Source of the DNA: Octopus vulgaris
Taxonomy: Eukaryota
Assembly (NCBI GenBank): GCA_951406725.2
Contig: OX597828.1
Coordinates: 42,284,001-42,348,000 of the forward strand
DNA: 64,000 bases
Reading direction: 5' to 3'
Within the stretch, counting starts at the first letter, position 1, and each line of letters opens with the position of its first letter. Positions 5,380-59,466 of the stretch are shown here, piece after piece. A model generated the notes under the pieces. That model saw nothing but the letters and a program-made list of their open reading frames with translations, was not told where the DNA came from and did no database searches. A program made the position numbers and the translations under genes.

Positions 5380-5782
5380 AGGCATAGGAGTGGCTGTGTG
5401 GTAAGCAGCTTGTTTACGAACCGCATGGTTCCGGGTTCAGTCCCACTTGCGTGGCACCTTGGGCAAGTGTCTTCTACTGTAGCCTCGGGCCGACCAAAGC
5501 CTTGTGACGGAAACTGACATACTCACACATACACAAACACATATATATGTATATATATGTGTTTGTGTATGTGTGAGTATGTGTGTTTGTCTCCCCAACA
5601 TCGCTTGGCAACCGATGCTGGTGTGTTTACATCCCCGTAACTTAGCGGTTCGGCAAAAGAGACTGATTGAATAAGTACACGGTTTACAAAGAATAAGTCC
5701 TGGAGTCGAGTTGCTCGACTAAAGGCGGTGCTCCAGCATGGCCACAGTCAAATGACTGAAGCAAGTAAAAGAGTAAAAGAGT
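5380..5782 (+). mobile_element. tRNA-derived SINE family A
   Basis: A box TGGCTGTGTGGT, B box GGTTCAGTCCC, internal microsatellite, tail CAGCATGGCC-hairpin-(GTAAAAGA)n. Confidence 0.9.
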
Positions 5783-5882
5783 AATCACAGTTCAATTATA
5801 TATAAGTCACTTCAGGGTCAATCGGTTCAAGAAGACGAAACGTCGTCTGGAAAGGACAGCTGGATTGTAACCACGGACTTAA

Positions 5883-7581: not shown

Positions 7582-7765
7582 GGAGAATTCACGAAGAAAA
7601 CAAAAGTCGAAGACAGGTGGTGTACAAAACAAACAGATGTATTAGTGTAACGCATAGGAATTGAAAATATCTTTTACGTTTCGAGCCTACGCTCTTCAAC
7701 AGAAAGGGACACAGAAAAAGAAAAAAACAAGGAGAGAAAAAAATGTGTGTAGTGGCTACCGATCT
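7577..7765 (-). mobile_element. Family P1 insert with hammerhead (7670-7706)
   Basis: Reverse complement CTTTCTGTTGAAGAGCGTAGGCTCGAAACGTAAAAG; (TA)n on both sides; opposite-strand partial copy at 7378-7441. Confidence 0.75.
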
Positions 7766-7833
<68 letters not shown>

Positions 7834-10047: not shown

Positions 10048-11630
10048 TACTGGCCAAAATAAGTTTTTAAGACTGATGATGTCAGTTCTATTCTTTCATT
10101 AATTTATTTTAAACAAAACTGTATAAAATTATTTTACTTGTTACAGTTTATGTAGATTTTTTTCATCTTTGGAATGATATAGGCGTTATATATCTTTCTA
10201 CAATTTGAAAAAAATTTAATGAGCAATTAATCCAAATGATGTGAAATTGTCCGCAAAGTAAATTTAAAACATTATTTTGTTTAAATTGAAAATTTACGCC
10301 AAAAATGATCTACGAACATAAATTTATTATTAGTATCTAGTTTCATAGCCATTATTTTCCATTATGACCTTACAACAGCGGGACATGGAGTTCGACAAAT
10401 GAGCACAAAAATCACTTGGAATGTTCTGCCATATTTCTTCTTTGAAATTATATAATTGGGGCAAATTTGGGGGTTTTTTTTAGCATGAACTCTTTTAGAA
10501 ACATAATTCCCAAAAATTTTCTATCGGATTCAAATCCTGGCTCTGCGGAGGCCACTCAATAACCACCATATTATTTCGCTCAAAATATTGCAAAACTTTC
10601 CTAGCCTTTTGAACGGGGTAATTGTCCTGCTGGAAAATAGATCCCGGCATCTGATTATTTAAATATTGCATAACATTTTCATTTACTAATTTCAGATAGC
10701 TCACACTGTTCAGTCTGTCATTAACCTTAATTGGACCAATACCTAAGCTGGTGAACGCGGCCCACACCATTACTTTCCACCTCCCGCTTGCGCCGTTTTC
10801 TTGACACACTTAGGATGGAATCCTTCAGTTCGACGGCGTCTAACCTAAGTCTTTCCGTCTGATCCAAAGATGCAGAATCGGGATTCGTCGCTCCAAAGTA
10901 CTTTTGACCAGTCTTCGACCGTCCATTCAATATGGCTTTTAGCAAACTTGATCCGCTTTCGTCGGTTCGTCTCACAACTTATCGGTTTCTTTCGAGCGAT
11001 CCGGACGAAGAGCCCAAATTCTTTTAGGAGGTTTCTGACAGATTATGGTGCAAAGCTGATGTCAGTTTCATCAGATAATTGCTTGCAAATGTCCACAGCT
11101 GTTAGCATTCGGTTCCCTTCAGAGAGCTTATGAATTCGCCGATCTATCTATACTGTTATTTTTCTCGGAGCACCCGTTCTTTGCCGATCTTTGTATTGGC
11201 CAGTGGCTTGGTAAAGCTTCCCTGCTTGAACACAAGCCGTTTTGCTGCATACTAATTGGTTGCTAATGTTCATGAAGGACACATATTGTTGATGAAGTAA
11301 CACGATCTTTGATTTAGTAACTGGGGAGGTACTACAACGCTTTCCCATAGCGAATTAATGTGTAACAATGCTCGATTATCAAACAAAACAGAGTAGTTCA
11401 ACCAGCCATATGACCACGCATTTGGTTTATCAATTTGCATAATCATGGTACGGTCTTAAACTTATTTTGCCGACAATTTCTAATCATTTGAATTAATTGC
11501 GCATTAAAATTATTCAAATTGTAGAAAGATATATAATGCTTATATAATTCGAAAGAGAAAAAACATAAACTGTAAAAAGTAAAAACATTTTAAACAGTTT
11601 TGCTAAAAACATAACTTATTTTGGTCAGTG
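10048..11630 (-). mobile_element. Tc1-family DNA transposon, full length, decayed
   Basis: TA-flanked ends TACTGGCCAAAATAAGTT / AACTTATTTTGGTCAGTG; about 200-bp diverged TIRs; transposase motifs inside. Confidence 0.92.
10330..11348 (-). pseudogene. Tc1 (DD34E-type) transposase pseudogene
   Basis: RTGAPRKIT, ARKKP, WSKVLWSDESRF, VMVWAAF, FQQDN, WPPQSQDLNPIENFW; stops and frameshifts. Confidence 0.92.
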
Positions 11631-12169: not shown

Positions 12170-12179
12170 TTTGTGAGAC

Positions 12180-12297
12180 GCTTACAGCACCTAGGCTTCC
12201 CAAGCGGCCACCCATCTAAGTACTCACTAGACTCGATGTTGCTTAACTCCGGTGATCGGACGAGAACCGGTGCTTTCAACATGATATGGCTGTAAGC
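12180..12297 (-). rRNA. 5S rRNA-derived copy (orphan variant or pseudogene)
   Basis: Reverse complement GCTTACAGCCATATC...GCACCGGTTCTCGTCCGATCACCG.AGTTAAGC...AGTACTT.GATGGGTG...GCTGTAAGC; 118 nt; no downstream T-run terminator. Confidence 0.88.
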
Positions 12298-14808: not shown

Positions 14809-15412
14809 GAAGGCGGCGAGCTGGCAGAATCGTTAGCACGCCGGGCGAAATGCTTAGCAGTATTTCTTCTGCTGCTACGTATTGAGTTCAAATTCCGCCG
14901 AGGTCGACTTTGCCTTTCATCCTTTCGGGGTCGATTAAATAAGTACCAGTTACGCACTGTGTGTTCGATATAATCGACTTAATCCGTTTGTCTGTCCTTG
15001 TTTGTCCTCTCTGTGTTTAGCCCGTTGTGGGTCGTAAAGAAATAGGTATTTCGTCTGCCGTTACGTTCTGAGTTCAAATTCCGCCGAAGTCGACTTTGCC
15101 TTTCATCCTTTCGGGGTCGATTAAATAAGTACCAGTTACGCACTGTGTTCGATATAATCGACTTAATCCGTTTGTCTGTCCTTGTTTGTCCCCTCTGTGT
15201 TTAGCCTCTTGTGGGTAGTAAAGAAATAGGTATTTCGTCTGCCGTTACGTTCTGATTTCAAATTCCCCCGCGGTCGACTTTGCCTTTCATCCTTTCGGGG
15301 TCGATTAAATAAGTACCAGTTACGCACTGGGGTCGATGTAATCGACTTAATTCCTTTGTCTGTCCTTGTTTGTCCCCTCTGTGTTTAGCCTCTTGTGTGC
15401 AATAAAGAAATA
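14809..15412 (+). mobile_element. SINE family B with one head and three tandem bodies (about 184 bp each)
   Basis: Head GGCGGCGAGCTGGCAGAATCGTTAGC once; GTATTTC..GAGTTCAAATTCCGCC..AAAGAAATA three times. Confidence 0.9.
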
Positions 15413-31937: not shown

Positions 31938-32184
31938 GTGTATACATATTTATATGTATATCTATATTTATATCAATGATAAATATCAAAGTGAGTTATA
32001 TACAGTAGCGGTAACACATCGTGACGTATATTTGCCATCTCAATATGGCTACCCCTAAGGGTGGATGCTACTGTAGTTTTTAGCCCCAGGAGGACACACT
32101 CCTCCAGCTGGCCATAGACACACTTTCTGTGTCCTGTCAGTATTTGCAAAGGGAAGTCATCCTTCCCGTCTTCAACTTATGATA

Positions 32185-32229
32185 CACACGGACTCGAGTT
32201 TCGAGGTATTGACCTCTCGTCAGCGTGTG
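32185..32229 (-). ncRNA. Type I hammerhead ribozyme, intact
   Basis: Reverse complement CACACG-CTGACGA-GAGGT caat ACCTC-GAAA-CTCGAG-TC-CGTGTG. Confidence 0.88.
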
Positions 32230-32334
32230 ACAATCATAGTTGATTTCACTTTTTCAATATCAGCGACAGTGGACGCTGGAAAAAGTATAAGTATTTGTGA
32301 AGGAAATCTAATTCTCGCCGACAACTATGATTGT

Positions 32335-32379
32335 CACACGCTGACGAGAGGTCAATACCTCGAAACTCGAGTCCGTGTG
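32335..32379 (+). ncRNA. Type I hammerhead ribozyme, intact
   Basis: CACACG-CTGACGA-GAGGT caat ACCTC-GAAA-CTCGAG-TC-CGTGTG; predicted cleavage after C32373. Confidence 0.88.
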
Positions 32380-32555
32380 TATCATAAGTTGAAGACGGGA
32401 AGGATGACTTCCCTTTGCAAATACTGACAGGACACAGAAAGTGTGTCTATGGCCAGCTGGAGGAGTGTGTCCTCCTGGGGCTAAAAACTACAGTAGCATC
32501 CACCCTTAGGGGTAGCCATATTGAGATGGCAAATATACGTCACTATATTTATATC

Positions 32556-32940: not shown

Positions 32941-33361
32941 TATATATATATGTACACACACATACACGCACACACGCACATACATTCATATATGATGACA
33001 CCCACCACATATTTGATAGTAATACATCTGTATATCATTGGATTTAAGTGAAAAACTACTGTACAACACTTCTGTTACTCTTTCGGTCGCCATATTGGAT
33101 TCCAGTGACAAGCAATGCAAGATGACCGGCACTGTCTCGACTGCAACTTTTACGGAAGAGTATCTTTCTCCTGTAGAAGAGCTGCCATCTCTCACAGCAT
33201 TGTCAGGAGCCTTTGCTACCCCTTGGGATATCTATTAACCCATGAATGGGTCGGTGACAGGTAAGTACACACGCATACATATGTGTGTGTGTATATATGT
33301 ATATAGGTGTATATATATATACGCATATATATGTGTGTGTGTATGTATATATATGTATATA

Positions 33362-33683: not shown

Positions 33684-34102
33684 TATATATATATGTACAC
33701 ACACATACACGCACACACGCACATACATTCATATATGATGACACCCACCACATATTTGATAGTAATACATCTGTATATCATTGGATTTAAGTGAAAAACT
33801 ACTGTACAACACTTCTGTTACTCTTTCGGTCGCCATATTGGATTCCAGTGACAAGCAATGCAAGATGACCGGCACTGTCTCGACTGCTACTTTTACGGAA
33901 GAGTATCTTTCTCCTAGAAGAGCTGCCATCTCTCACAGCATTGTCAGGAGCCTTTGCTACCCCTTGGGATATCTATTAACCCATGAATGGGTCGGTGACA
34001 GGTAAGTACACACGCATACATATGTGTGTGTGTGTATATATGTATATAGGTGTATATATATATACGCATATATATGTGTGTGTGTATATATGTATATATA
34101 TG

Positions 34103-41878: not shown

Positions 41879-42800
41879 AACAGATGAAAGGGGGCGCCTA
41901 AATGAGTAGAAGACTATGCATGGATATGTTAGTAGAAAGTTCAGAGATGATAGTAACATAGACCATCAAAGCAGTCTATCGTGGACCAATAGCCGGATTA
42001 CTACCTCCCACTTTGAAGGGTATACATTTGCAATCCAGGAACAGGAAATATCAACCAAGTACCTGATGCAAAAAAGGGATAGAGATGCTGGAAAAGCTGG
42101 AAAATGTGAAAACCGATGCACACTTTGTGGAGTTAACACCGAAGATATCACCCCCATCATAAGCAGTTGTCCAAAAATGTCATCATGTTATTATCTACCA
42201 ACGAGACATGATGCTGTAGCAAGGACACTATAATGAAATCCGTCGGAAGGATAAACCCGAGGACAAAGAAATAACAACACACAGTATAATAGAAGCCACA
42301 GCCACTCATAATAGAAAGGAGTACTGGTGGAATGTACCAGTGAAGACATCAATAAATTGTAAGCACAACAGACTTGATATCATGATTTGGGATAGAGAAG
42401 AGAAACTGTGCACAGTCGTGGAAATGAGCTGCTCAGCAGATGTTAACATAAAGCTGAAGATCAGTGAAAAAGAGAACACCTATGCTGAACTATTGAGAAA
42501 CCTGCAGTTATTCTATCCAGATTACAAGTTCAGATTTATACCTGCAATTATTGGATATGTAACACGGCCTTGGATATGTAACACACGGCCTAAACACTAA
42601 TCTTGAGAAATTAGGCTTCTCAAAACCAGAAAGGAGTAAGCTAATCTAAAGACTACAGATCCAATCCATCACTGGAACTAAAAGTTTGTGAAACTTTCCA
42701 AAAGTTTATCATTTAGATATATATGAGCGTGTCTAGACATGCAACTATATGCATGAGAATACATTCATAGAACAAAGCATACAAATCTGCACACATACAT

Positions 42801-43772
42801 ACATACACACATACAAAAATACCCTGTTGTTGATGTTGAAATTCCAATGAAGGAGCCTTGGATCTAGGCTACGAGGGGCGTTCAATAAGTAATGCCCCTG
42901 GCCCACTTACATACACACATACAAAAATACCCTGTTGTTGATGTTGAAATTCCAATGAAGGAGCCTTGGATCTAGGCTACGAGGGGCGTTCAATAAGTAA
43001 TGCCCCTGGCCCACTTACATACACACATACAAAAATACCCTGTTGTTGATGTTGAAATTCCAATGAAGGAGCCTTGGATCTAGGCTACGAGGGGCGTTCA
43101 ATAAGTAATGCCCCTGACCCACTTACATACACACATACAAAAATACCCTGTTGTTGATGTTGAAATTCCAATGAAGGAGCCTTGGATCTAGGCTACGAGG
43201 GGCGTTCAATAAGTAATGCCCCTGACCCACTTACATACACACATACAAAAATACCCTGTTGTTGATGTTGAAATTCCAATGAAGGAGCCTTGGATCTAGG
43301 CTACGAGGGGCGTTCAATAAGTAATGCCCCTGACCCACTTACATACACACATACAAAAATACCCTGTTGTTGATGTTGAAATTCCAATGAAGGAGCCTTG
43401 GATCTAGGCTACGAGGGGCGTTCAATAAGTAATGCCCCTGACCCACTTACATACACACATACAAAAATACCCTGTTGTTGATGTTGAAATTCCAATGAAG
43501 GAGCCTTGGATCTAGGCTACGAGGGGCGTTCAATAAGTAATGCCCCTGACCCACTTACATACACACATACAAAAATACCCTGTTGTTGATGTTGAAATTC
43601 CAATGAAGGAGCCTTGGATCTAGGCTACGAGGGGCGTTCAATAAGTAATACCCCTGACCCACTTACATACACACATACAAAAATACCCTGTTGTTGATGT
43701 TGAAATTCCAATGAAGGAGCCTTGGATCTAGGCTACGAGGGGCGTTCAATAAGTAATGCCCCTGGCCCACTT
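42801..43772. repeat. Tandem array, 9 x 108 bp (LINE 3' UTR plus mariner TIR junction)
   Basis: Units start at 42801, 42909 ... 43665; nearly identical. Confidence 0.95.
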
Positions 43773-52439: not shown

Positions 52440-53589
52440 AAATCCGCTCTAGTATTTAGTTGACATTCCCTTTGCAGTTTCTAATTCAGAAGCTCTTTTT
52501 GGCATTGAACTGATGAGCTTTGTGATCGTCTCTTGTGGAATTTCTGCCCACTTTTCATGCAACAATCGAAACAATTCATCTTTAGATTTAGGTTTCTGTC
52601 GAGTTTTTCGTATAGCTCTATCTAGTATGCTCCAAATATTTTCAACTGGGTTCATGTCAGGAGATTGGCTCGCCCAAGGAAGCTTTTTGAACCCATTTTC
52701 AGTCAGCCATCGTTGATTTCTTTTTACTGTGTCATGGAGCACCATCTATGAATAAAACTCATTTTTCGTTATATTATCGTGTGAATACATCGGAAGTAGT
52801 CCTTGCTTAAATATTTCAATGTATTTTTCAGAGTTTATGGTTCCAACACATTCGATCAGCTCAGAACGACCATTGGTTGGTGACAGCTCCCCATACCATT
52901 TCAGGGATACCGCCATGTTTCACAGTTGGTTGGAGTCGTTTCAAATCAAATTCTTGATTGGGAAGCCTCCAGACCCAATCACATCCACTCTCTGAAAATA
53001 ATGCACATCTAGATTCATCTGAGAAAATCACTCTATCCCAAAATGAACTGGATTTTTCTGACCTCTCCTTAGCCCATTTCTTTTTTTTCCTGATATTAAT
53101 TGGTTGAGGAGAGGTTTTCTTCTAGCTGCTCGTCCGTAATACCCAAGCTTATGCAGATATGTAACACACTTTCTTGGGCTAACTTCTAGCTGTTTTGCAA
53201 TGTCAGAAGCCTTCGAACGGGATACGTTTTCCACAATTCTCTTCAAACAGCGAAGCTTCCTTTCCGAGGGCCCAGGTCGGTCGGGACGAGAATCTGTTGT
53301 TTCTTTTCCATAGCTTTTGAATTGCACTATAATTCTATTAACAGTAGCAAGAGGAATTTGAAGATCTTCGGTAATTTTTCGCTGGCTAAGACCAGCCTCA
53401 CATTGCCCAACAATACGACCTCTGAAAATATGACAGTTCTGCTGAATTTTTTGTTACTATTTAATATAAATGCACCTGGAATGAAAAAGAATAATTACAT
53501 TGTAACTTCTACACTGCTGAAAATATATTAAGACGCTGGGATCAGAAATTTTGAAAATTAAAGGTGTCTATTTACTTCCTGCATATCTG
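52440..53589 (-). mobile_element. Tc1-family transposon, decayed, one TIR lost
   Basis: [45 protein letters not shown]; end TA|CAGATATGCAGGAAGT. Confidence 0.9.
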
Positions 53590-58232: not shown

Positions 58233-59466
58233 TAAGATGGATGAGAAATATTTTCCCAACCAAGCTCTTCGATCTTTTGTCATATGATATTTGCAGTGTG
58301 GGGTCGCGCATTGTCGCCATGAAACATCACTCCTTTTCGATTCACTAAAGCGGGTCTTTTTTTCTTCAAAGCTTGATTCAAACGTTCTCATTGCTAACAG
58401 TAGACTTGAGCATTGATTGTTGCATTAGGTGGTAGCAATTCCAAGTGAATTACTCCTTTGCAATCCCACCAGATAGAGGGAAGAAGTTTTTTCCCATGAA
58501 GTTCCCTTCTCGGTTGTGGTTGAGCATTTTTCCCTTTTACCAAGCCACTGTTTACAACGTTTAACATTTCGATGGAAAATCCATTTTTCGTCACCAGTCA
58601 CAAGTCTATCCAAAAAGAGTGAAATGAGTTCGCGAGAATGGAGAGAAGAGCAGATGTCAACTCAGGATTTTCGGTTGCTTTCGGACAATTCATGAGGCAC
58701 CCATTTTCCAAGTTTAGGAACCTTTCCAAGTTGTTGAAGATGACGATGAACAGTTGTATGGTTTGAACTAAGTTTTATTGCCAATTCTTCAACTGATAAT
58801 GCAGGCTTTTCTTCAAGTAATGCCTCAAGGAGCTTATCATCAAGCTCAACTGAACATCCTGTTCGATCTTCATCTTCAAGGCTGAAATCCCCACTTCTGA
58901 ATTTTGCAAGTTCTTTCATTCAAGCATACTTTTCCACAAACTGAGTGTATGTTTCGAGTCGCTTTGGCTGCAGAGTTTCCTTTTTTGTGCCTCAAAGGCT
59001 CTTTGGATACTTCCATGTTAGAAAGGGTTTTAATCAAAGAAAAATTGAATTCTATTTGTCTGTAAAATAATATTGAATCATCTTTATATATTTGTTTTGC
59101 AAGATTCTTGATGTGAAATCGTGTATTGAAACATATGTTGTTGCATTTAGGAATGGCCATGTTGCCAGTTTAGCCAATAAAAACACACGCATTATATATT
59201 TGGTGTTAATTTGCTTCAGCTTTATGTATTTTTTACATTAATCTTAATAAAGCTGAAGCAAATTAACACCAAATATATAATGCGTGTGTTTTTATTGGCT
59301 AAACTGGCAACATGACCCTTCCTAAATACAACAACAATATTTAATTAGTTTAAATGTACACAAATGCATAAAAATAATTTTTAATTCCATTAGACATTCT
59401 AAAATACCATTAAATTTCATTCAGTTTTAAAAAGGTAAGATCGGACGTAAATTATGGGATGACCTG
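58228..59466 (-). mobile_element. Mariner transposon, 3'-truncated, transposase pseudogene (ATG about 59016)
   Basis: KFRSGDFSLED, GKWVPHELSE, LVTGDEKWI, WWDCKG, HGDNARPH, HPSYS; terminal TA|TCAGGTCATCCCATAA. Confidence 0.92.
59088..59336. mobile_element. Family P3 fold-back insert (90-bp arms 59136-59225/59247-59336) inside the mariner 5' region
   Basis: Arms match 1845-1935. Confidence 0.75.

Follow-up and report, generated by a model that had tools for sequence, protein, structure and literature searches.

A head-to-head hammerhead retrozyme copy in Octopus vulgaris and insertion ends resembling those of Penelope-like elements

Non-LTR retrozymes are characterized, in the accessible descriptions, as non-coding tandem units of 150-450 bp with a GC content below 50%, each of them carrying a type I hammerhead ribozyme. 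They are also described as lacking LTR, PBS and PPT, as dispersed with TSDs longer than 4 bp and as expressed in both linear and circular RNA forms. Hammerheads whose helix III is a palindrome of 2 bp work as dimers, according to the available text of PMC4209133. For Penelope-like elements (PLEs), a tail on one end only and an inverted 5' copy are given as hallmarks in the accessible parts of PMC8557442 and PMC3846280, and a PLE protein is described, in the available portion of PMC11167929, as cutting and extending both strands, starting at two internal sites and being predicted to be dimeric. Both the enzyme that moves animal retrozymes and the origin of the inverted copies and tails of Penelope elements are posed as open questions in the accessible portions of this literature, and the octopus genome holds a very young retrozyme family together with young candidate drivers.

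The locus presented here is best explained, at a probability of roughly 0.8, as a young retrozyme insertion whose head-to-head shape arose during insertion, when a PLE-type RT/endonuclease would have primed both strands of a staggered (TA)n cut on the same RNA.

The fold-back and its predicted ribozyme

The window, that is, the whole 64,000-nt stretch of contig OX597828.1 analysed (positions 42,284,001 to 42,348,000), contains one element of 569 bp at 31975-32543, the parts of which are collected in Table 1. Its arms had been judged by eye to be exact reverse complements, and self-comparison confirms a perfect fold-back, with 222 of 222 positions complementary, 0 mismatches and a 79-nt spacer, the next-best diagonal reaching 8 bp; another 46 nt lie beyond the left arm on its left side. 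Relative to a natural unit taken from a different locus (L001), the window carries positions 1-46 reversed, 131-352 reversed and 52-352 forward, all of them exact, the spacer being unit sequence too. No further match to the element was found elsewhere within the 64-kb window. The proposal that the insertion is very recent gains support from its 12-bp target-site duplication (TSD) and from 17 other places in the genome matching it at 301 of 301 positions with the top score.

Table 1. Features of the head-to-head element and its flanks (positions within the 64-kb window)
Feature	Position	Strand	Basis or remark
Left TSD copy, 12 bp, at the edge of a (TA)n tract	31963..31974		Identical to 32544-32555
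46-nt tail, unit 1-46, second fixed end of the family, left arm only	31975..32020	-	Exact reverse complement; ends at 44-50 recur across loci
Left arm, unit 131-352	32021..32242	-	Exact match
Type I hammerhead of the left arm, mirror of 32335-32379	32185..32229	-	Minus-strand motif scan
Inversion junction, 3-nt exact microhomology (10 nt imperfect), joining two 5'-truncated arms	32240..32242		
Fold-back loop, unit 52-130, continuous with the right arm	32243..32321	+	Exact match
Right arm, unit 131-352, stopping at the first fixed end (352)	32322..32543	+	Exact match
Type I hammerhead, predicted cleavage after C32373, 2-bp palindromic helix III	32335..32379	+	RF00163 E 2.1e-6; fold energies; conservation in the older subfamily
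Right TSD copy, 12 bp	32544..32555		

The canonical ribozyme core recognized in the sequence-only reading holds up as well, with CUGACGA at 32341-32347, GAAA at 32362-32365 and GUC with its C at 32373, and so do the 6-bp stem I, the 5-bp stem II and the palindrome at 32365-32372; the element carries the type I core CUGANGA / GAAA / UH with helices I-III. The Rfam model Hammerhead_1 (RF00163) scores this segment at 32.2 bits, below its gathering score of 34, so that the motif is absent from a gathering-level scan. In a single molecule helix III amounts to 2 bp only, and the active fold of the monomer is computed to lie 5.9 kcal/mol above the MFE, with a helix III pairing probability of ~0. The duplex formed by the palindrome is computed at -10.7 kcal/mol, an energy which suggests that the hammerhead would act as a dimer.

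Self-cleavage or folding into dsRNA had been put forward as the two possible fates of a transcript from either strand. Since the computed energy of the full hairpin (-478.8 kcal/mol, compared with -18.3 kcal/mol for the active ribozyme fold) comes together with a helix III of 2 bp, this copy is predicted not to cut itself as a hairpin; the dsRNA half of that proposal is retained as the predicted outcome and the self-cleavage half is not, the antisense arm being transcribed first whichever strand is read. A transcript reading through the copy is predicted to form a 222-bp dsRNA and, because each strand carries a single sense ribozyme, no unit could be freed from it. With that single sense hammerhead preceded by its antisense, the copy is therefore a predicted dead end.

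The element has a GC content of 0.43, a Pfam scan of three frames across it gave no match, no ORF homology was found, and it lacks the ORF with RT and GIY-YIG that marks an autonomous PLE. As for the rest of the window, no host gene was detected among 100 of the 232 candidate frames that were scanned. A DHHC hint at 7592-7771 turned out to be spurious, and an exon-like segment at 33030-33275 corresponds to an old interspersed repeat with a second copy at ~33773-34016 (a local duplication, 99% identity). Also present are a 5S rRNA match at 12179-12297 (-) of 104.8 bits, remnants of Tc1/mariner transposases at 10498-11042, 52452-53453 and 58397-58919 (-), and tandem arrays at 42800-43772 (108 bp x 9, 99% matches) and 14860-15412 (184 bp x 3). 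The host genome is rich in microsatellites.

Family members and the ends of their insertions

Searching the 2.8-Gb genome of origin (227 contigs) with 32243-32543 as query yielded 124 matches, drawn from 40 of the 2563 candidates. Eighteen are full-length and have the top score, and a spacing of 352 bp is frequent among the matches. An exact 33-nt pattern of the ribozyme core occurs 439 times in the genome, compared with 0 for the reversed control, and a pattern specific to the 352-bp variant occurs 130 times. Units repeat in tandem with a period of 352/353, up to 6 full units being found within one arm, and the locus maps display no LTR. Copies are dispersed and flanked by TSDs longer than 4 bp (~13, 11, 11 and 8 bp at L069, L125, L180 and L001, respectively), and the circular unit folds much more stably than its shuffled counterparts (z -6.0). 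The tandem unit, the core, the TSD and the self-paired circle match the metazoan non-LTR retrozymes as presented in the available text of PMC7229834, and the non-coding character and GC content agree with the family description as well; judged by its sequence, the element is a non-LTR retrozyme, a known kind.

An older subfamily, ~10% diverged internally, keeps the ribozyme core, with core positions conserved in 25-29 of 29 copies, and contains head-to-head copies too. One stem II pair is A-U in one subfamily and G-C in the other, both sides having changed in 26 of 29 older copies. This older subfamily (L184-L213) also has the same two ends, and in 23 of 29 copies the first pair of stem II is a C-A mismatch. 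Elsewhere, L111 holds two retrozyme pieces (2396-2631 and 5539-5882) whose 5' sides are fused to low-complexity A/T runs extending over kilobases, which could reflect either stuttering synthesis or an assembly artefact. As an autonomous partner L111 was discarded, the 3.2 kb between its two pieces being devoid of an RT ORF.

Locus architecture was initially classified for 109 loci (49 inverted and 60 in a single orientation). In the final set of 108, L027 and L092 were reassigned to the inverted class, both arms being visible, L087 was removed as a mirror duplicate of L082, the doubtful L145 was kept as uninverted, and L111 stood outside the set. By hand tally, 50 of the 108 loci are head-to-head and 0 are tail-to-tail; head-to-head copies make up 30 of 58 in a subset ordered by genome position. 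There are two fixed positions for the outer ends, one at 351-352 and one 44-50 nt into the next unit, the latter leaving the tail, and at 99 of 108 loci (43 inverted and 56 uninverted) every outer end lies at one of the two. Forty-three of the 50 inverted loci carry one end of each kind and 0 of 50 carry two equal ends (p 2e-13 at 50:50), the remaining seven (L016, L018, L098, L108, L122, L132 and L175) having one end elsewhere; L175, ending at 352 and 10, comes close to breaking the rule. Among the 58 uninverted loci, 44 end at 351-352, 12 at 45-50 and 2 elsewhere. The family therefore displays what would be expected from mobilization by a PLE, namely an optional 3' tail between two fixed ends and a head-to-head inverted 5' copy.

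Inner ends, by comparison, are scattered and mostly joined by overlaps of 0-8 nt, and (TA)n flanks were observed at nearly all loci. Across 38 inverted loci (5 of 43 were set aside because of their complexity or because the locus edge cuts them), the tail-less arm is the longer one in 25, the copy at 31975-32543 among them, and the tailed arm in 12. Arrest of the tail-less arm on reaching the second start site, in the manner of L1, would fit this copy, whose inner end lies at 49-52; inner ends at 36-61 occur at 6 of 38 loci against ~3 expected, the first 40 loci having been picked with a query that favours such a stop. The fold-back is a typical and recent product of a multi-copy retrozyme family that the sequence-only reading missed, a by-product rather than a special device.

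Templates, candidate drivers and rival explanations

Both arms of a locus tend to share their variants. At 45 of 49 loci no shared diagnostic site distinguishes the two arms, where permutation gives a mean of 12.5 and a maximum of 22 in 5000, and at the other 4 the arms are discordant. Of 100 locus-private substitutions lying where both arms have coverage, 18 are present in both, some of them in every unit (6/6 at L057, 5/5 at L059); 129 of 153 private substitutions are confined to a single piece. The shared arm haplotypes point to what would be one RNA template. Variants present on only some units are in register between the arms at L057, L062 and L175 and out of register at L092, L069, L103, L147 and L178, and either arm conversion or two RNAs from one source locus could mimic shared haplotypes. 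Pieces that span the cleavage site are common (212 of 357) and 5' ends at the cleavage site are rare (3 of 147); the template is therefore taken to be a circle or an uncleaved multimer. No ADAR signature was recognized among the locus-private variants (A>G 20, T>C 25).

Candidate drivers were sought through a GIY-YIG search of the genome, with 148 matches listed among 6136 candidates. Family 1 (L071:430-5672, L072-L080) encodes ORFs of 346 and 765 aa, the latter with RT and GIY-YIG, and has a 40-nt tail; the CxxxxCxxC motif ahead of its nuclease makes it of Neptune or Nematis type by the description in the accessible text of PMC8557442. In each of ten copies fetched, a frame of 781 codons runs without interruption, and the copies show 3-83 differences over 2346 nt. 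Family 2 (L214-L243, L148), 46% identical in amino acids to family 1, has a 4271-bp unit in full tandem arrays, and 40 of 40 scored copies are identical over 281 bp; it appears even younger than family 1, many identical copies lying on one chromosome. In both families the copies stop at either of two fixed positions and abut (TA)n, and inverted copies have one end of each kind in 2 of 2 cases for family 1 and in 4 of 4 readable cases for family 2, where one further copy was unreadable. Comparison of the retrozyme unit with the whole of family 1 and most of the 4271-bp unit of family 2 gave only AT-rich matches, with E of at least 0.02, and hammerhead scans of both gave only implausible hits. 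With neither shared sequence nor a hammerhead detected, both families are therefore candidate drivers only. No pLTR homology to an autonomous PLE was detected among 30 GIY-YIG loci of the 148 listed and 18 further regions; matches near PLEs at L148, L151 and L077 were rejected as older independent insertions. A hammerhead-like motif with the same palindromic helix III and a long stem II lies near a GIY-YIG fragment at L153:3660-3740 (minus strand).

One locus joins both kinds of element. At L052:1363-1827 (G000:C4:141.754 Mb), 94 bp of the family 1 3' end (98.9%) stand head-to-head with a retrozyme unit, joined by a 9-nt fold-back without an intervening TA tract. Neither of its ends carries a tail, and TA tracts into which a young PLE end and a retrozyme have inserted separately are found at L116, L163 and L177; L052 is therefore considered a lead only, as a possible co-integration of a family 1 element and a retrozyme.

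As a mechanism, and by analogy with the retrozymes of mussel and axolotl, tandem source copies would give transcripts whose hammerheads cleave them as dimers and whose units then close into circles. A dimeric PLE protein would begin one cDNA at 352 and the other at 46-49 on RNA that is either circular or an uncleaved multimer, and the two truncated cDNA ends would anneal by microhomology into the fold-back. Formation by a PLE-type route during insertion is in itself likely, and the single-molecule detail, twin priming on one RNA, is somewhat favoured. A bolder version, which we put forward tentatively and with appreciable doubt, is that one dimeric enzyme primes two strands at two fixed sites on a single circular RNA, that a Neptune-type element devoid of a hammerhead is hijacked by the retrozyme, which has no sequence in common with it and would be recognised by structure alone, and that L052, with one arm from the autonomous 3' end and the other from the retrozyme, is a co-integration caught in the act. 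If so, half of the new copies would be born as perfect hairpins silencing their own family.

The same family and a PLE-type enzyme might also have made the second arm by snap-back copying of cDNA, or the arms might have been homogenised later by gene conversion, which would account for their identity and for the shared private variants, and several partly shared variants do lie in the units nearest the junction (L092, L069 and L147). Self-priming on an antisense template has indeed been proposed for rotifer Penelope palindromes, in the accessible text of PMC3846280. Nonetheless, snap-back from the tailed strand needs the tailed arm to contain the whole of the tail-less one, against the 25 of 38 loci where the tail-less arm is longer, snap-back from the tail-less strand is unable to supply the tail, and conversion alone leaves the end rule unexplained, so that we regard this route as unlikely. 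That the fold-back is instead a selected regulatory device, acting at this locus as a ribozyme switch or supplying dsRNA for editing or small-RNA production, is in keeping with its perfect 222-bp stem and the predicted dsRNA of a read-through transcript, but becomes very improbable when about half of the insertions share the shape with arbitrary junctions, 12 loci among the first 100 listed cores have the exact core on both arms and the 100 of 232 candidate frames scanned include no detected host gene; moreover, arms with zero divergence have left no time for selection to show.

Perfect palindromes are a familiar long-read artefact, and an assembly or library origin has to be weighed on that account. 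Contigs of four public runs cover the unit deeply and, among the pieces listed, none bridges the junction, contigs being unable to test it. However, the flanks are not mirrored, the TSD brackets the element, the tail is present on one arm, the same geometry recurs with different junctions at 49 other loci, and head-to-head copies also occur in the ~10% diverged subfamily, all of which makes an artefact scarcely credible. Insertion by a PLE-type enzyme priming both strands stands as the preferred reading, and the loci yield a testable prediction from it: one of each start site per two-armed insertion, with both arms from one RNA.

Comparison with known systems

The element is of a known kind, and its value lies in the genomic footprint of retrozyme and Penelope insertion rather than in the palindrome. 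In the literature searched, which covers few subscription journals, no description was found of tails, inversions or a one-of-each end rule in retrozymes, and within the same coverage nothing on point concerning hammerhead ribozymes in cephalopods.

Metazoan non-LTR retrozymes (Cervera and de la Pena 2020, PMC7229834), as far as the available text goes, are alike in their non-coding tandem unit of ~350 nt (350-390 in mussel), one type I hammerhead per unit, a GC content here of 43%, TSDs above 4 bp and a strongly self-paired circle. The fixed double ends, the tail and the (TA)n targeting do not appear in the accessible account of those retrozymes, nor does the word "inverted" occur in it; expression and RNA circles are demonstrated there, and the octopus family is described here from its genome sequence. 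The preprint by Li, Clavereau and Pollet (2026, 10.64898/2026.07.22.740005) likewise proposes, in its accessible text, that retrozymes are non-autonomous PLE derivatives. Its evidence consists of co-occurrence and pLTR homology in vertebrates, while that from octopus is an insertion footprint without pLTR homology; local amplification is invoked there for arrays, and "tail" is absent from the available text.

EN+ PLEs of the Neptune/Nematis type (Craig et al. 2021, PMC8557442; Arkhipova et al. 2013, PMC3846280) are similar, in the accessible parts of both papers, in their partial tandems, 5' truncation, an inverted 5' copy placed head-to-head, a tail on one end only, TSDs of 8-13 bp and microsatellite targets. 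Unlike them, the retrozyme has no ORF, its tail measures 44-50 nt rather than 30-40 nt, and it lacks detectable homology to the two young PLE families compared. The in vitro behaviour of PAc Poseidon (Frangieh et al. 2024, PMC11167929), as available in that text, agrees in that two internal RT start sites bound the tail, both strands are cut at AT-rich places, uncleaved RNA serves as substrate and a dimer is predicted. The PAc bulk data display no strand difference in start site, whereas the octopus loci exhibit one site of each kind per inverted insertion, on what appears to be a shared template.
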